Part shown: positions 2,923 through 51,797 of the stretch, piece after piece
Layout: each line of letters starts with the position of its first letter
Numbering within the stretch: the stretch's first letter is position 1
NCBI GenBank assembly: GCA_038883775.1
Contig: JAVZLM010000001.1
Location: forward strand, 1 to 64,000
Length of the DNA: 64,000 nucleotides
Source: Candidatus Bathyarchaeia archaeon
GTDB lineage: Archaea; Thermoproteota; Bathyarchaeia; Bathyarchaeales; Bathycorpusculaceae
Direction: 5' to 3'
Position numbers and translations under genes: made by a program
Notes under the pieces: generated by a model
What the model saw: only the letters and a program-made list of their open reading frames with translations
Databases searched by the model: none
Told to the model about the DNA's origin: nothing

Positions 2923-5154
2923 GTGAAGATTGTAGATTTGCCAATTCCAGAGTCCGTTAAGGAAATTCTAATTAAGTCTGGAATTGTGGAGCTTTATCCA
3001 CCACAAGAAGAAGCCATAAAAGCCGGCGCCCTTGAGGGACGAAATCTTGTTTTGGCAAGTCCCACGGCTTCTGGAAAAACTTTGGTGGCGGAATTTTGCG
3101 CTTTAAAGCATATTCTGGAGAAAAATGGAAAAGTCATTTATTTAACGCCTTTGAGGGCTTTGGCTAACGAAAAATTTGACGAATTCAAAAAATACACAGC
3201 CATAAAAAAAGATGATGGCAGACGCTTGAGAGTGGGCATAAGCACGGGCGATTTTGACAGCAGCGACCCATGGCTAGAGCGCTATGACATAATCATAACC
3301 ACAAATGAGAAGGCTGATTCGCTTTTGAGGCATAGAGCCAAGTGGATGGATGAGATTTCGCTTGTTGTGGCTGATGAGGTGCACTTGTTGAATGATGCTA
3401 AGCGGGGTCCAACTTTGGAGGTGGTTTTGGCAAGGCTTATGCAGATTAATCCAGACATTCAAGTTTTGGCTTTAAGCGCAACAATAAACAATGTTGAAGA
3501 AATTGCAGAGTGGCTTAAGGCAGACTATGTCACAACAGAGTGGAGACCAATACTTCTAAAAGAAGGCGTCCTCCTACACGAAGAAATCCAGTTTAGGGAT
3601 GGAGACGCCCGCAAAATAGAAAAAGAAACCAGAAATCCAGCCATAAATTTGGCATTAAACACCATAAAGTCTGGCGGTCAAGCCTTAATTTTTGCTGCAA
3701 CCCGCAAGAACGCAGTTATGCTAGCCAAAAAAGTCGCGGGCGAAATTGAACAAGTTTTGTCTAAACCAATAAAACGTGCTTTGGAACATGAAGCAGAAAG
3801 GATTCTGGCGGCAGGCGAAAAAACTAGAATAAGCGAGTTGCTTGCTGAACTTGTTAAACGTGGCACAGCCTTCCATCATGCTGGTTTGGGCGGAACCCAC
3901 CGCAAATTAATAGAGGATTCTTTCCGAGAGGGAAAGATTAAGGTTTTAACTGCAACGCCGACTTTGGCTTTCGGCGTGAACCTTCCGGCAAGAACCGTTG
4001 TAATTCAAGATTATAGACGCTACGAGCCTGGATATGGTTACTATCCAATAAGCGTTTTAGAATACAAACAAATGGCTGGCAGAGCCGGAAGACCAAAATA
4101 TGACAAAGTCGGCGAAGCCATACTTACGGCAAAAACTGCAGACGAATCAGACTATTTAATGGAAAGCTACATCTTAGCAAAACCAGAACGCATATGGTCA
4201 AGGCTTGCTGTTGAAAGAATTTTAAGGTCTCATGTTTTAGCTACAATTGCCGCAGATTTCGCCCACACAGAACGCGGAATATACGACTTTTTCGGAAGAA
4301 CCTTCTATGCCTATCAATATGAAACAAGCACCATTAAGGGCATAATAGCAAAAATTCTCAAGTACCTTTACGATGAGGAAATGATAGACGTTAGCGGAGA
4401 AAACATTTACGCAACAAAATTCGGAAAACGAGTAAGCGAATTATACATAGACCCAGTTTCAGCAGTTATAATACGCAATGCACTACGAAGAAGACCAGCA
4501 TACATAACAGACTTAAGCTTACTCCACATGATCGCTCACACCCCAGACATGGGGCCAATAATGAGACCCTACTCTCGCGAGTTGGATGCAATAGCCGTTT
4601 TCATGGAAGAACACAAGCCAGAGTTTCTGATAGAAGTGCCAGACGAATGGGAAGACCGCATAGCATACGAACAATTTCTGGGCGAAGTAAAAACAGCCAT
4701 GGTTTTAAACGGATGGATAGAAGAGATGACGGAAGACGAAATAATCGAAAGATTCAGGACGCAACCAGGCGACCTATATAGGATAATTGAAAATGCAAAA
4801 TGGCTCTTGTACGCAACACATGAGTTAGCCTCACTTTTCGGCAACAAAGAAATCCTCCCAAAAACAGCAGAACTCATGGAAAGAGTCGAAAAAGGAGTAA
4901 AGAAAGAACTACTGCCCATAGTCAAACTTGAAGGCGTCGGCAGAATCCGCGGACGCATACTATACAATTCTGGATACAAAACAATAGAAGACATAAAACT
5001 TGCATCCATAGAAGACTTAATGAACTTACCGCTAATAGGACCCAAACTGGCAAAGAAAATAAAGGAACAAGTCGGCGGCTTCGTGAAAAAGGAAACATGG
5101 GAAAAACTTGAAAAAGAAGAAATATGGAAGCAGAAGGCTTTAACCGAATATTAA
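2923..5154 (+). CDS. hel308: Hel308/Hjm Ski2-like SF2 DNA helicase
   Basis: LYPPQ, PTASGKT, DEVH, LSAT, FHHAGL, QMAGRAGRP motifs; C-terminal GVGRIRGR HhH. Confidence 0.95.
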   Translation: MKIVDLPIPESVKEILIKSGIVELYPPQEEAIKAGALEGRNLVLASPTASGKTLVAEFCALKHILEKNGKVIYLTPLRALANEKFDEFKKYTAIKKDDGRRLRVGISTGDFDSSDPWLERYDIIITTNEKADSLLRHRAKWMDEISLVVADEVHLLNDAKRGPTLEVVLARLMQINPDIQVLALSATINNVEEIAEWLKADYVTTEWRPILLKEGVLLHEEIQFRDGDARKIEKETRNPAINLALNTIKSGGQALIFAATRKNAVMLAKKVAGEIEQVLSKPIKRALEHEAERILAAGEKTRISELLAELVKRGTAFHHAGLGGTHRKLIEDSFREGKIKVLTATPTLAFGVNLPARTVVIQDYRRYEPGYGYYPISVLEYKQMAGRAGRPKYDKVGEAILTAKTADESDYLMESYILAKPERIWSRLAVERILRSHVLATIAADFAHTERGIYDFFGRTFYAYQYETSTIKGIIAKILKYLYDEEMIDVSGENIYATKFGKRVSELYIDPVSAVIIRNALRRRPAYITDLSLLHMIAHTPDMGPIMRPYSRELDAIAVFMEEHKPEFLIEVPDEWEDRIAYEQFLGEVKTAMVLNGWIEEMTEDEIIERFRTQPGDLYRIIENAKWLLYATHELASLFGNKEILPKTAELMERVEKGVKKELLPIVKLEGVGRIRGRILYNSGYKTIEDIKLASIEDLMNLPLIGPKLAKKIKEQVGGFVKKETWEKLEKEEIWKQKALTEY

Positions 5155-47342: not shown

Positions 47343-47420
47343 TGGTGCTCCGGCCGGGATTTGAACCCGGGTCCGTGGCTCGAGAGGCCACAATACTTGA
47401 CCGGACTATACTACCGGAGC
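47343..47420 (-). tRNA. tRNA-Glu(CTC), intronless, CCA encoded
   Basis: GCTCCGG...GTGGC CT CTC GA GCCAC...CCGGG TTCAAAT CCCGG CCGGAGC A CCA. Confidence 0.96.
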
Positions 47421-47502: not shown

Positions 47503-48009
47503 TTAAAGGCGACTTGTAAAAACATATTTTCGGTAGAAGTTATCTATCTCTAATTTGCTCCAATTTTCCCATTCACTTTTAGGAATAAAATTTCGCAAGC
47601 CTTTCGTTTTAAGTCTTCTTTTTAATGAATTATTTTCATATAACATGTTAGGCAGCCTCATAATCATGGCTTTATTTTCCATGAAGAACTCATAGGTCTG
47701 AAATTTCATAATGGCGTATTCTCTCCATAACTGTCGTATCTCTTTTGACTCTATTTCTAGTTTTAGCTTTTCTATTTCTTCCTTGCTTTCCATTGAAAGG
47801 CCATATCGAATCAGAAGAGGAATGCCCTGATTTTCAAGTATCCCTTTCTCTTTTAGAAAGCAGCTTAGTTCCTTGCCAAATTCGTAGGGAACGACGATTT
47901 TTAAACGGACTTTTTCGTGGCTTTCAATAGCCTCTAAAGCACTTATAAGGTCATTTTTGCGAGGCTCTTGAGAACGTTCTTTACGGAAAAAATTACTGTT
48001 AAGCTTCAT
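47503..48009 (-). CDS. Hypothetical protein (gene 4 of the riboswitch operon)
   Basis: 168-aa ORF overlapping the upstream gene by 11 nt; possible RHH-like start followed by a coiled coil. Confidence 0.65.
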   Translation of the reverse strand: MKLNSNFFRKERSQEPRKNDLISALEAIESHEKVRLKIVVPYEFGKELSCFLKEKGILENQGIPLLIRYGLSMESKEEIEKLKLEIESKEIRQLWREYAIMKFQTYEFFMENKAMIMRLPNMLYENNSLKRRLKTKGLRNFIPKSEWENWSKLEIDNFYRKYVFTSRL

Positions 48010-48328
48010 GTTTCATTCTCCGATGGTCTTTTTCTTTCATAATCTTTCTCAACCGTATGTTTTCTTTCTCTAAAGCCTTCAGGATTTCGTTGTCTTTTTT
48101 ATATTCTTTGAACAGTTTCTTCATATGCATGTAACTTTCTTTCATTTGTTTAAATTCCTGTAACCAATAGTTTGCCATTCCACGCTTCATTGTTTTAACT
48201 AATGCACCGCTTTCGTCTAATTTGTTTTCAGCGATATATGCTTTGAATTTTTCGTAGGTTGATTGATCAAGAAATACATCTAAAATTGCTGTTCCGTCTT
48301 TTTTATTAAAAACTATGCGGCTGAACAT
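47999..48328 (-). CDS. Hypothetical protein (gene 3 of the riboswitch operon)
   Basis: 109-aa ORF with GAGGG RBS; beta-helix-helix start followed by a coiled coil. Confidence 0.65.
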   Translation of the reverse strand: MFSRIVFNKKDGTAILDVFLDQSTYEKFKAYIAENKLDESGALVKTMKRGMANYWLQEFKQMKESYMHMKKLFKEYKKDNEILKALEKENIRLRKIMKEKDHRRMKHEA

Positions 48329-48345
48329 TGTTTTCCCTCATATGG

Positions 48346-49068
48346 TTAAACAGAAACATTTCTAAGTTTCAATCCTCGTCTGCCAACCATCTTTTGAACG
48401 CTTCTCAAGAGCACATCTTCTACTGCTCTGCGGTCTTGGTTTGAAAATTCATAGCTTTGCCTTCTTATGTACTCAGCAAGTTCGAAACCCAGTCGACGAA
48501 GATTTTTCTCTTCAATTTCTATAATAGTTGCAATGACCTCCCTGCTTTGGCTATGCGATGTTTCCTTCAACGCGTTGATTAATGCTGTAAAGTGTGGTAT
48601 GCATAGTCCTTTGGAATTTTTAAAAAGCATAAGAAACTCTTCATGGTTTGATAAGAAAAGTTTCACGATTTCTTTGTTGCAGATTTCCATGAGATTGGCT
48701 ATATACACGCAAGCTGGGCAGTTCTTTGCGTCTTTTTGATAGAAACTTTTATGGTTTTTCCTAAGTTTGTGCAAATCTTGAATGAGTCTTTCAATGGTGT
48801 CTTGGCTGATTAGAGCTATTCCATGTCCGTCAGGGCTTTCTGGTTTGCTTGCAGCAATTAGCATTCTGTAAAAGTGGTGATTGCAAAATCCTCTACTCTC
48901 GACGATATTTTCTCTTGCTTTAGCATCCATTACAAGCTCAGAAAGATGAGCGTCAATGTATTTTCTTTCAACTTCATCTTCTAGTGCGCATAAGAAACAT
49001 TCTGCACCGCTTTTGATTATCCTTTCAATGTGGAAATACGTTACATCAACGCTCACGCAAATCATCAC
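48346..49068 (-). CDS. DUF6062-like duplicated CxxC...CxxH zinc-binding protein
   Basis: Two repeats: CFLC...GFCNHH and CPAC...GLCIPHF; 4-nt overlap with the upstream gene. Confidence 0.75.
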   Translation of the reverse strand: MMICVSVDVTYFHIERIIKSGAECFLCALEDEVERKYIDAHLSELVMDAKARENIVESRGFCNHHFYRMLIAASKPESPDGHGIALISQDTIERLIQDLHKLRKNHKSFYQKDAKNCPACVYIANLMEICNKEIVKLFLSNHEEFLMLFKNSKGLCIPHFTALINALKETSHSQSREVIATIIEIEEKNLRRLGFELAEYIRRQSYEFSNQDRRAVEDVLLRSVQKMVGRRGLKLRNVSV

Positions 49069-49925
49069 TGCTCACTGATTGTTTTTAATACATTAACGGC
49101 GTAGAAAGTGTCTTCAAAAGTGGATATTCCAATGTCAGACCTTGCAAATCCGCCGTTTGCATTTTGGCATTTAAGAACGAATTCTGCTGTTTGCTTGGGG
49201 TATCTCAGGTGTTCGTCAAGAAGATTAAGTGTTGACGTTCCATAGTATATGTGTTCCATGTATGGAGTAGAAGCATGTGGCACAACAGTGAAGCCTCCAA
49301 ATGGCTTTTCACAAGCTCTAACATAACTCAAAGTATCCTTGAGAGATTTGACTGGATAACCAAGATTAAAAAGTGAAGCCACAGCATGATAGGTGGAATT
49401 CAAATTTGAGTGTCCATGGGCTCCAAAACCACCGTTCTTATTTTTGAAGCTTAACAACCACTCTGCGAGTTTTTTGCTTTCAATCTCTATGCCAACAATT
49501 TTAACAAGCTCGGTTGTCATGAAAGTGAGGAGAAATTCTGAAGCAACTTCAACATAAACATCAACTGTTCCAAAATTCCCTTTGGCACAAAGTAGAGAAA
49601 GGATAAAATTTTTAAGATTTTTTTGAGGTTTTTCACCGCACAATTTTAAGGCTTTAGTCACATAATAATGTGAATAAAGATTGTCTGGAACAAAGTCATG
49701 TAACCACTTGACAGTCTTTTTAACATTTGGAAATGGAACGTTTAATAAGTTCAAAATTGCAAGTCCATAGTAGGTATCTTGTGCATTTGATTCTGTACCT
49801 TGACAGAAAGTATACCCACCGTCATCGTTCTGTCGATTCACTATGTAGTGGACAACACGTTTAATCCATAAAAAGTTTGCAGACTGCCCAGATTCTAAAT
49901 CATCGAACCGCCCCACTTCACGCAA
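49065..49925 (-). CDS. Prenyltransferase/squalene oxidase repeat protein (alpha/alpha barrel)
   Basis: Repeats QNDDGGY, KNKNGGF, EKPFGGF and QNANGGF, each followed by TYY/TYH/TFY-type helices; GAGGG RBS 8-9 nt before the TTG. Confidence 0.85.
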   Translation of the reverse strand: MREVGRFDDLESGQSANFLWIKRVVHYIVNRQNDDGGYTFCQGTESNAQDTYYGLAILNLLNVPFPNVKKTVKWLHDFVPDNLYSHYYVTKALKLCGEKPQKNLKNFILSLLCAKGNFGTVDVYVEVASEFLLTFMTTELVKIVGIEIESKKLAEWLLSFKNKNGGFGAHGHSNLNSTYHAVASLFNLGYPVKSLKDTLSYVRACEKPFGGFTVVPHASTPYMEHIYYGTSTLNLLDEHLRYPKQTAEFVLKCQNANGGFARSDIGISTFEDTFYAVNVLKTISEQ

Positions 49926-49956
49926 TCTAACATACCCTCTTACGCTTTAATGTTGA

Positions 49957-50020
49957 GTAGAAGCTATCAGCCCCTGCGCATGCAGAAGCAAGGGCGGTTA
50001 AAGGCGAGCTTCATCGCCCT
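49957..50020 (-). ncRNA. Fluoride riboswitch (crcB motif)
   Basis: Transcript AGGGCGAUGAAGCUCGCCUUUAACCGCCCUUGCUUCUGCAUGCGCAGGGGCUGAUAGCUUCUAC. P1 GGCGA/UCGCC with the GAUG core, AACCG linker, P2 GCCCUUGC/GCAGGGGC, GCUGAU, pseudoknot GAAGCU/AGCUUC and terminal UAC all match the crcB consensus layout. Confidence 0.9.
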
Positions 50021-50049
50021 TATATTTCTGGAAAAGTATGATAAAAAAG

Positions 50050-50065
50050 TAAATAAACATTTCTC
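50050..50065 (-). promoter_or_regulatory. Putative BRE/TATA promoter of the riboswitch operon
   Basis: GAGAAATG-TTTATTTA about 30 nt upstream of the riboswitch 5' end. Confidence 0.5.
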
Positions 50066-50147: not shown

Positions 50148-51797
50148 TTAGTATTCTTCGCCTTCTTCGCTTGGTGGTTTTTCTGGTGCTTTTTCTTCTT
50201 TTGGTTTCGTTGCTGCTATTACATCGTCTATGCGGAGTATCATTGATGCTGATTCTGCAGCGGATTTTACTGCTTGTTCTTTGACTATTAAGGGTTCTAC
50301 TACGCCGTTTTCTTGCATGTTTTCAACTTTTCCTGTAAAAACGTTTACGCCCATAGCGTTTCCATCTTTTTTCTCGTGGGCTGCTCGAAGTTCTACGATT
50401 ATGTCTATTGGTTCGAGTCCAGCGTTTTCGGCTAGTGTTCTTGGCACTATTTCTATGGCGTCGGCGAAGGCTTCTATGGCTAGTTGTTCTCTTCCGCCGA
50501 CTTTTGTGGCGTAATCGCGGAGTTCTTTTGCGATTTCTACTTCTACTGCGCCGCCGCCTGCGACTATTTTGTTGTTTTCTATTACATCTGAGACTACGGA
50601 TAGGGCGTCTGTCATGGCTCTTTCTGCTTCGTCGACCATCCTCTCAAGCCCAGCACGTATGAGAACAGCTACCGAACGCGGGTCTTTGCATTTTTCCACG
50701 AAAATCATTTTATCTTCGCCAATTTTGCGCTCTTCAACAATGCCAGCTTCGCCTAAGTCTTGGGCTGTTAAGTCGTCTAAATCTGTGATTATTCTTCCGC
50801 CTGTGGCTCTTGCGAGTTTTTCCATGTCTGATTGTTTTACGCGTCTTGCGGCTAGAATTCCTTCTTTTGCTAGGAAGTGTTGTGCCATGTCGTCTATGCC
50901 TTTTTGGCAGAAAACTACGTTTGCGCCTACTGCCTTTATTTTGTCTACCATTTCTTTGAGCATTTTTGTTTCTTGGTCTAGGAAGGCTTTCATTTGGTTT
51001 GGGTCGCGGATGCGGATTTCTGCGCTGAATTCTGTTTTTTCAATTTCTAGTGGGCAGTCGAGCAAGGCGATTTTTGCGTTTTCTAGTTTTTTGGGCATTC
51101 CTGGGTGGACGACTTCCTTGTCTATGATTAAGCCTTTTACGAGTTGCGACTCAAGGAGGCTTTTTCCTGTTTTCTTTATTATTTGTATGTTGTCTATGTC
51201 TGCGATTCGTTTTTCTCCACGCTTTTCTGCTATTTGTTTGACTGCGTCTATGGCTATTTCCGCCAGATGCTCTTTTGCTGGGCCGACAGCTTTGCTTGCC
51301 ATGGACGTTAATGCCACTTTCTTTAGGGTTTCTCTGTCTTCTATGTCTACTGGTGTAGCGATTTTGTTTATTGTTTCTACTGCCTTTTGGGCTGCTTTTC
51401 TGTAACCGCTCACTATTATTGTTGGGTGAATGTTCTGGTCTAGGAGTTCTTCTGCCTTTTTGAGGAGTTCGCCTGCTAAGACTACGGCGGTTGTTGTGCC
51501 GTCGCCTACCATGTCGTCTTGAGTTTTCGCTATTTCAACCATCATTTTTGCTGCTGGGTGTTCAACTTCTATTTCGTCTAGGATTGCTGCGCCGTCGTTG
51601 GTTATTGTTATGTCTCCTAGGCTGTCGATGAGCATTTTGTCCATTCCGCGGGGTCCAAGGGTTGTTTTTAGTACTTCGCCTATGATACGTGCTGCCATGA
51701 TGTTGTTTCTTTGGGCTTCTCTTCCTCTGCTGCGTGTTGTTCCTTCTTTTAGTATTAGGACTGGTTGTCCAGACTGGGTTGTTGTTAAGTATGCCAT
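50148..51797 (-). CDS. ths: Thermosome (group II chaperonin) subunit
   Basis: [33 protein letters not shown]. Confidence 0.97.

Follow-up and report, generated by a model that had tools for sequence, protein, structure and literature searches.

Known fluoride resistance relies mainly on export, through Fluc/CrcB, CLC-F or FEX proteins, and on extra copies of fluoride-sensitive enzymes. A 2024 review of fluoride riboswitches (crcB motif, RF01734) places CrcB, DUF190, pyrophosphatase, the Na+/H+ exchanger and enolase among the commonest genes associated with this RNA, and it mentions exporters, Na+/H+ antiporters, pyrophosphatase, HAD phosphatases, enolase, formate hydrogen lyase and chorismate mutase (PMC11139923). 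Here, we describe a fluoride riboswitch operon with different cargo in a 64,000-nucleotide (nt) stretch of DNA from a Candidatus Bathyarchaeia archaeon (contig JAVZLM010000001.1, positions 1 to 64,000, hereafter the window). An aptamer on the reverse strand precedes four genes, g1 to g4, which encode an alpha/alpha-toroid protein (g1), a member of the Pfam family DUF6062 (g2), and two small proteins predicted to combine a ribbon-helix-helix (RHH)-like domain with a coiled coil (g3 and g4). The linkage of g1 and DUF6062 to the aptamer recurs throughout related archaea, and that of DUF6062 extends into bacteria, which supports the view that these genes did not come together by chance but form a conserved fluoride-regulon module that is apparently undescribed.

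The aptamer was identified by an Rfam scan of the whole window and of its own genome (1.69 Mb in 28 contigs, 91% completeness, 5% contamination). Two matches in the window exceeded the gathering score, one to a tRNA and one to RF01734 (gathering score, 34); the latter covers the full model (1-64) at 49951-50027 on the reverse strand, with 51.1 bits and an E value of 3.1e-11, and is the only RF01734 copy in the genome. A first-pass annotation of the window, made by a model from the letters alone, had called a fluoride riboswitch here and had proposed the Rfam fluoride model as a check; the call was borne out by a full-length match well above the gathering score, and its location and strand stand, but the Rfam extent is wider than the 49957-50020 originally given. 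In the RF01734 alignment, P1 is formed by GGCG/CGCC and P2 by GCCC/GGGC, the conserved single-stranded joining blocks match the consensus, and two pairs of the pseudoknot differ from the Rfam consensus GGAGU/ACUCC in both nucleotides. The pseudoknot itself can be read from the complementarity of the P1-loop GAAGC to the 3' tail GCUUC. From its sequence, the 49951-50027 aptamer is predicted to bind fluoride selectively (with Mg2+) and to control its genes in a ligand-dependent manner. As initially described, the aptamer lies between a TATA-like box and the ribosome binding site (RBS) of g1, and an A/T-rich box resembling TTTATTTA is found at the same distance from the aptamer in related leaders. 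The features of the operon, in the order of transcription, are as follows.

50050-50057, reverse strand: TATA-like box TTTATTTA, about 25 nt upstream of the 5' edge of the aptamer (read from the sequence).
49951-50027, reverse strand: fluoride riboswitch aptamer (crcB motif, RF01734; full-length Rfam match, 51.1 bits against 34).
49985-49999, reverse strand: 5' strand of the putative OFF-state helix, AACCGCCCUUGCUUC, comprising the aptamer linker and the 5' strand of P2 (RNAfold, pair counts).
49934-49939, reverse strand: Shine-Dalgarno-like GAGGGT, 8 nt before the TTG start.
49923-49925, reverse strand: TTG start of g1.
49906-49919, reverse strand: 3' strand of the putative OFF-state helix, GAAGUGGGGCGGUU, covering codons 3-8 of g1 and mimicking the 3' strand of P2 (pair counts).
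49065-49925, reverse strand: g1, soluble alpha/alpha-toroid protein of 286 amino acids (aa) (Pfam PF00432, 87.5 bits; AlphaFold2; Foldseek).
48346-49068, reverse strand: g2, DUF6062 protein of 236-240 aa, predicted all-helical (Pfam PF19538, 114.7 bits).
47999-48328, reverse strand: g3, 109 aa, predicted N-terminal RHH-like domain and coiled coil (profile match to PDB 2kel_A).
47503-48009, reverse strand: g4, 168 aa, distant paralogue of g3 with a predicted RHH-like domain and coiled coil (hhalign against g3).

The open reading frame (ORF) coordinates agree with the originally reported junctions of -4, +17 and -11 nt for g1/g2, g2/g3 and g3/g4, respectively. The first of these could alternatively be -1 (ATG within TGATG) or +8 (GTG, 12 nt further on), and the GTG candidate agrees with the N-termini of g2 homologues. 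The absence of transmembrane helices from the four proteins was likewise upheld, given that the maximum 19-residue Kyte-Doolittle mean in g1-g4 is at most 1.26, compared to 2.2-2.4 in the CrcB and major facilitator superfamily (MFS) controls. On the same strand, a thermosome subunit gene (50148-51797) ends 120 nt upstream of the aptamer, and a tRNA-Glu(CTC) at 47343-47420 follows g4 after 82 nt and a T-rich spacer. Summed contig depth in two community runs (probably of DNA contigs) is 117-186 over the aptamer (49926-50026) versus about 20 over the genes; this roughly five- to eightfold rise is limited to the aptamer and fits near-identical aptamers in several members of the community. The single raw-read RNA run contributed 0 reads at this locus.

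Our survey covered 61 metagenome bins from this order, counting the genome of the window itself. An aptamer above the cut-off is present in 12 of them, and a g1 homologue is the first or second gene in 11 of the 15 stretches downstream of these aptamers, the other four being CrcB-led, weak or cut. The g1 profile matches in 14 genomes, and each of the 11 intact copies, which are found in 10 genomes, immediately follows a same-strand aptamer that scores above the cut-off. G046 has a fragmented copy with an intact aptamer, and three matches are fragments at contig ends that are not judgeable. In G009 (L102:2150-3117; G009:C33:43152-44116), g1 is split into two pieces by an in-frame TAG and sits behind a decayed aptamer (19.7 bits, P1 disrupted), which suggests joint decay of the switch and its gene. 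DUF6062 occurs at 10 places in 9 of the 61 genomes, all of them aptamer-bearing, and at nine of these places it is the gene after g1. A DUF6062 copy in G047 (G047:C79:4011-4727; 82 bits, 307-aa frame) stands apart from the aptamers detected in that genome.

A wider scan of species genomes yielded 37 DUF6062 loci (34 in Bathyarchaeia and 3 bacterial), of which 32 have an aptamer upstream on the same strand, the misses being three contig-end cuts with less than 900 nt upstream and two bacterial loci. Every assessable Bathyarchaeia locus (31/31) carries the aptamer. These 37 loci were searched with our own covariance model, built from 13 Bathyarchaeia aptamers, which missed a Cytophagia aptamer found by Rfam; its misses are therefore not evidence of absence. 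The first-pass annotation had suspected an undescribed fluoride-response module and had suggested that homologues be surveyed for upstream crcB motifs, and the conserved linkage at 11/11 intact g1 copies and 31/31 archaeal DUF6062 loci agrees with that suspicion. The 31 archaeal loci share g1-g2 as a constant core, with the g2 frame interrupted in the ORF calls of L046 and L062. The g3-g4 pair follows this core in 12 of them and a small coiled-coil pair, sA-sB, replaces it in 7; sA and sB were considered as relatives of g3/g4 and rejected, given hhalign probabilities of 9.6% and 1.3% and similarity that is otherwise coiled-coil noise. NUDIX hydrolases occur in 8 loci, a pyrophosphatase in 1, and a dynamin-like GTPase in 1. 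On a Bathyarchaeota contig (L059:2128-10347), two fluoride aptamers occur as a tandem; the one at 2128-2211 precedes a P-type ATPase, and the one at 4069-4151 leads, on one strand, into g1, g2, a 108-aa protein, an MFS transporter, an inorganic pyrophosphatase, a NUDIX protein, and a dynamin-family GTPase. Further aptamers within loci stand before a Na+/H+ exchanger (L055:9697-10687) and an MFS gene (L066:3684-5202).

The linkage of DUF6062 to fluoride aptamers is also observed in bacteria. In a Spirochaetota genome, an aptamer (Rfam, 54.8 bits) directly precedes DUF6062, which is followed by enolase, and in a Cytophagia genome an aptamer (Rfam, 47.8 bits) lies 1.9 kb upstream of two DUF6062 genes with a dynamin-family GTPase in between, while the Rfam model found no aptamer in a Sumerlaeota genome with DUF6062. 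Ten of 167 Bacteroidota genomes encode DUF6062, and in 4 of the 10, an aptamer is located within 2 kb upstream on the same strand. The order in G063, G110 and G200 is aptamer, dynamin-like GTPase, DUF6062, continuing into enolase in G200; in G176, it is aptamer, DUF6062, zf-C2H2, two small ORFs, and enolase. The nearest aptamer in G222 is 3.4 kb downstream and below the cut-off, that of G069 is on another contig, and no aptamer was found in four Bacteroidota genomes with DUF6062. The aptamer-DUF6062 link is therefore present in 5 of the 12 bacterial genomes examined, making DUF6062 a cross-domain member of the fluoride regulon. Enolase is a textbook target of fluoride. It is also a known associate of the fluoride riboswitch, as the review states (PMC11139923). 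The dynamin-family GTPase found between the aptamer and DUF6062 in Bacteroidota is about 600 aa long (L071:2293-5576, L098:3497-6102, L099:569-3063).

The leader of g1 has the potential to form a second structure that is incompatible with P2. For the window and for the majority of 30 related leaders, the minimum-energy structure predicted by RNAfold contains a 14-bp helix, AACCGCCCU.GCUUC : GAAGUGGGGCGGUU. We counted pairs in an alignment of 28 leaders (27 distinct), using as controls the 3' strand slid by 1-3 columns and 500 shuffles, which ignore the relatedness of the leaders. The 14-pair helix is paired in 91.5% of 378 cells versus 37-49% in the slid controls. Double-sided changes affect three pairs (9 cells, a number reached in 0/500 shuffles) and single-sided changes four, and the residues encoded by GAAGUGGGGCGGUU vary (V/A, G/R) while pairing holds. 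They fall in an N-terminal segment that is disordered in the AlphaFold2 model of g1. When the aptamer fold was imposed, the computed unpaired probability rose from 0.40 to 0.82 for the Shine-Dalgarno sequence and from 0.18 to 0.45 for codons 3-8. No oligo-T tract is present in the leader. Translational control had been suggested earlier through pairing of the P2 strand GCCCUU with the GAGGGU RBS; control at the level of translation is likely, but the proposed pairing does no better than its controls (65% paired over 27 distinct leaders versus 63-67% when slid, with no double changes) and was rejected. In two more distant families, the P1 3' strand pairs instead with a GGGUGGG Shine-Dalgarno sequence.

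The protein encoded by g1 matches Pfam PF00432 (Prenyltrans) with 87.5 bits (cut-off, 26.5), and the repeats are present. Its AlphaFold2 model has a predicted local distance difference test (pLDDT) score of 88, with 16 disordered N-terminal residues, and the best Foldseek matches are the beta subunits of GGTase-III/RabGGTase (PDB 6o60_B and 3dsu_B; TM-score 0.75, E 1e-7, 16-18% identity). When g1 is aligned by phmmer with RabGGTase beta, the GRPEKLPDVCYSWW segment of the latter, which carries the Zn ligands (Asp, Cys) and the diphosphate-binding Arg/Lys, lies opposite VVPHASTPYMEHIYYG of g1, and g1 has Y, E and V/S at the ligand positions, as judged from this sequence alignment. Moreover, no PPTA alpha-subunit (PF01239) match was found at E of 0.01 or below in the 91%-complete genome, and g1 is the only Prenyltrans gene of that genome. 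Because the aligned ligand positions are not kept, no PPTA gene was found, and the genome has no second Prenyltrans gene, we consider that g1 retains the prenyltransferase fold and do not favor a role as a prenyltransferase, nor the lipid- or isoprenoid-modifying function that had been offered as an example for the operon.

The initial family assignments of g1 and g2 were both confirmed, g2 matching PF19538 (DUF6062) with 114.7 bits (cut-off, 27) over profile positions 10-239 of 243. The duplicated CxxC/CxxH arrangement noticed in the first reading is genuine; g2 contains two CxxC...CxxH sets, spaced by 35 and 36 residues, that form the Cys3His motifs C24, C27, C62, H65 and C117, C120, C156, H159. 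In 27 archaeal homologues, all of these residues are invariant save H65, which is nearly so, and both motifs are kept in seven bacterial DUF6062 homologues. The g2 model (pLDDT 81.5) is all-helical and places the Cys3His sites at helix N-termini. Structure prediction with Foldseek, as had been suggested for the operon, succeeded for the g1 toroid but gave no PDB match for g2 at E of 1e-3 or below. A wide VIA-align search with g2 reached a best Z of 6.2 over the C-terminal helical hairpin only, an Atlas structure search excluding DUF6062 clusters returned no usable match, and none of 8000 scored candidates was a longer (fused) DUF6062 protein, a weak piece of evidence. By BLASTP, one half of g2 aligns with the other only in the SxGxCxxHF motif (E 0.07). 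Complex prediction for g1 with g2 gave a score of 0.00, which weighs neither for nor against binding.

For g3 and g4, the RHH-plus-coiled-coil architecture that had been raised as a possibility is supported in part. A profile of 13 g3 homologues matches PDB 2kel_A over residues 4-48 (E 1.9e-5) and, less closely, 3gxq_A (ArtA; E 0.2); 2kel ("protein 56B") is an RHH regulator of an archaeal virus. But neither protein has a Pfam RHH match, a search of PDB with the g4 profile gave nothing meaningful, and g4 is assigned through g3, to which its profile aligns in hhalign with a probability of 87% and E 3.8e-6. The structural neighbors of g4 in the Atlas belong to RHH_1, Arc-like and NikA-like clusters, all with TM-scores below 0.5, and serve as leads only. 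The C-terminal segments of both proteins are coiled-coil-like. We therefore predict that g3 and g4 are paralogous RHH-like and coiled-coil proteins, with g4 linked through g3 and its weak Atlas neighbors.

The statement that no exporter is visible around the operon holds beyond the window. In the 91%-complete genome, we found no CrcB (PF02537) match, no CLC (PF00654) match above the cut-off (one CLC-like match has 12 bits), and no close homologue of the operon-type MFS transporter (best identity, 26%), and none of g1-g4 matches the CrcB or CLC families. Six of the 12 aptamer-bearing genomes (G000, G001, G004, G033, G046 and G047; 87-98% complete) are without both CrcB and CLC. Across the 61 genomes, CrcB or CLC is found in 9 (CrcB above the cut-off in 5, CLC in 7) and neither in 52. 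The absence of known exporters is thus the rule in the order, which is notable in itself; it also tempers the earlier emphasis on an exporter-less operon, a description that is true of this operon but less special than it seemed. Transporters do occur in homologous operons, with an MFS gene in 9 of the 31 archaeal operons, CrcB in 6 (one with DUF190), either or both in 13, and neither in 18, and these counts are lower bounds given that several loci end at contig ends. A second aptamer, with crcB and DUF190 behind it, comes directly after the module in G026. The condition set in the first-pass annotation, that homologous operons with crcB as the norm would make this locus a truncated copy, has an intermediate outcome: crcB is present in only 6 of 31 homologous operons and so is not a usual member, but transporters (MFS/CrcB) are present in 13 of 31 and often travel with the module. 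Directly before the operon-type MFS gene, 4 of the 9 MFS loci encode a protein of about 108 aa with no Pfam match and 52-63% identity among the four (L038:5969-6292, L049:5833-6159, L055:7068-7388, L059:5709-6035), which may be a partner of that transporter.

Taken as a whole, these results are in our judgment likely to be explained by a fluoride-inducible operon in which a translational ON switch controls cytoplasmic, non-transport cargo. The mRNA would begin just upstream of the canonical aptamer. Without fluoride, the linker and P2 5' strand AACCGCCCUUGCUUC would pair with g1 codons 3-8 (GAAGUGGGGCGGUU), shutting the RBS and TTG start inside a stable structure; with fluoride, the locked aptamer would hold that strand in P2, freeing the initiation region for translation of the coupled genes. 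On the computed structures, the leader is most likely a translational ON switch under kinetic control, a reading that we infer from the opening of the Shine-Dalgarno sequence, the stability of the OFF structure, and the lack of an oligo-T tract. The cargo would then consist of a noncatalytic toroid (g1), a protein with two putative Cys3His metal sites (g2), and an RHH/coiled-coil pair (g3/g4). We hypothesize that g1 and g2 mitigate fluoride damage inside the cell, with DUF6062 acting as a metal-dependent factor that protects or adapts enzymes which need a metal and are sensitive to fluoride, such as enolase, and g1 as its archaeal binding or scaffold partner, while g3 and g4 probably bind DNA and would relay the fluoride signal to other promoters. 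A bolder proposal, which we regard as tentative, is that DUF6062 forms the core of an export-independent fluoride defense common to archaea and bacteria, a metalloprotein that captures fluoride or spares metal enzymes, working with the toroid partner in archaea and with enolase or dynamin-like GTPases in bacteria; it would be the main defense of Bathyarchaeia that lack exporters, with the RHH pair widening the regulon.

Several observations weigh against parts of this explanation. In neither computed state is the start codon unpaired, and the aptamer state lies about 14 kcal/mol above the OFF structure, with the pseudoknot and ligand not counted in that figure, so that switching would need to be under kinetic control. 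The alternative helix has its 3' strand within coding sequence, so protein constraint may explain part of the conservation of that strand, and in most of the helix pairs either a single side varies or neither does. Because of this coding overlap and because the shuffles ignore relatedness, we take the conserved alternative helix as support for a switch rather than proof of one, and the direction of switching as an inference. Two other families of the order have g1 with a Cys-free partner of about 215-223 aa instead of DUF6062 (L020:1466-2148, with the frame interrupted by stops, L022:1509-2180, and L025:1524-2171; no Pfam match), and bacteria have DUF6062 without g1; a g1-g2 complex is therefore not required. 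Of the 12 bacterial genomes with DUF6062, 7 show no aptamer preceding it. The function suggested for g1 and g2 derives from their gene neighborhood alone, g2 having no structural relative, and the absence of exporters is not proven because all of the genomes are metagenome bins.

We considered whether the operon could instead hold accessory genes of a standard exporter response, either because the exporter is unassembled or of an unrecognized family or because the operon is a remnant of larger crcB/MFS operons. The genome is 91% complete and in 28 contigs, MFS and/or CrcB genes lie downstream in 13 of the 31 homologous operons, and G026 has the module directly before a second aptamer, crcB and DUF190; we nevertheless judge this account unlikely, since six aptamer-bearing genomes, including bins that are 97-98% complete, lack both CrcB and CLC, and 18 of the 31 operons have no transporter in the run, although some of these end at contig ends. 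In addition, the four frames are intact here, and the one decayed aptamer accompanies a broken g1 in G009, which speaks for the module being maintained in its own right. Membrane or lipid remodeling, in which g1 binds or modifies isoprenoid lipids and acts with DUF6062 to limit the entry of hydrogen fluoride or to repair damage, and the bacterial dynamin-like GTPases serve the same purpose, draws on the prenyltransferase/terpene-cyclase fold of g1, on the dynamin-like GTPases found with DUF6062 behind aptamers in three Bacteroidota genomes and at the end of the L059 operon, and on the MFS transporters in 9 of 31 operons. It seems improbable to us given the Y, E and V/S of g1 at the positions aligned with the Zn/diphosphate ligands of RabGGTase beta, the failure to find a PPTA alpha-subunit gene in the genome, the absence of hydrophobic segments from g1-g4, and the DUF6062 genes that adjoin enolase without any membrane-related gene.

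A purely regulatory cascade would make DUF6062 a zinc-finger-type regulator or antifactor that, together with the RHH pair, relays the fluoride signal elsewhere and has no protective chemistry of its own. The two Cys3His sites of DUF6062 at helix N-termini, the RHH-like character of g3 and g4, and the zf-C2H2 gene that follows DUF6062 in one Bacteroidota operon all fit such a cascade, as does the single aptamer of the genome, which would leave other fluoride-responsive genes in need of a relay. DUF6062 matches no DNA-binding family or fold, an abundant-looking toroid partner would be superfluous for a regulator, and g3/g4 occur in only 12 of 31 operons, so it seems improbable to us that regulation is all that the operon does. 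Finally, the response of this RNA to fluoride is predicted from sequence, and the RNA could be a look-alike of the fluoride aptamer that is nonfunctional or senses another ligand. We regard this as highly implausible, given the full-length match 17 bits above the cut-off with all conserved blocks and a compensated pseudoknot, and given that near-identical aptamers precede crcB in related genomes. We therefore retain the inducible operon with a cytoplasmic, protective cargo as the working explanation.

In summary, a known switch is found here with new conserved cargo, a novelty that is limited to the literature searched. That literature does not name DUF6062 at all, although the gene lists of Baker et al. 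2012 may carry these genes as hypothetical proteins, and it contains no link of fluoride riboswitches to prenyltransferase-like proteins, Bathyarchaeota or dynamin. DUF6062 gains a first functional context from its place behind the aptamer, and g1 and DUF6062 are clonable candidates for a cytoplasmic fluoride response. The findings also raise the question of how fluoride is coped with in an archaeal order in which 52 of 61 genomes are without known exporters. The leader would offer a clean archaeal translational platform with its anti-aptamer strand inside the coding sequence and could serve fluoride-inducible expression tools.

Each component can be set beside a known counterpart. RHH regulators such as 2kel_A and 3gxq_A (ArtA) are the closest counterparts of g3 and g4; the g3 profile aligns with 2kel_A over its first 45 residues, whereas g3 and g4 have long C-terminal coiled coils and no Pfam RHH match. 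Like the beta subunits of RabGGTase and GGTase-III, g1 has an alpha/alpha-toroid fold (TM-score 0.75) with PF00432 repeats, but it is only 16-18% identical to them, is shorter (286 aa), does not keep the ligand residues at the aligned positions, and has no alpha-subunit gene among the PPTA matches sought in its genome. The g2 protein is a clear member of DUF6062 (PF19538, 114.7 bits), a family without a described function, for which no link to the fluoride aptamer was found in the literature searched. The crcB RNA of Thermococcus kodakarensis is likewise an archaeal aptamer whose next gene, TK0513, does not encode the exporter, although there the exporter gene TK0514 comes next (PMC4247193). 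Compared with RF01734 operons of bacteria and archaea at large, the present operon has the same aptamer and a gene-activating leader logic, and the operons of its relatives carry the familiar CrcB, DUF190, pyrophosphatase, Na+/H+ exchanger and enolase genes. It differs in that neither the operon nor the assembled genome contains an exporter match and in that its cargo is four soluble proteins of families that the available sections of the review do not name (PMC11139923). It differs further in its predicted expression platform, which would use the early codons of the first gene as the anti-P2 strand.

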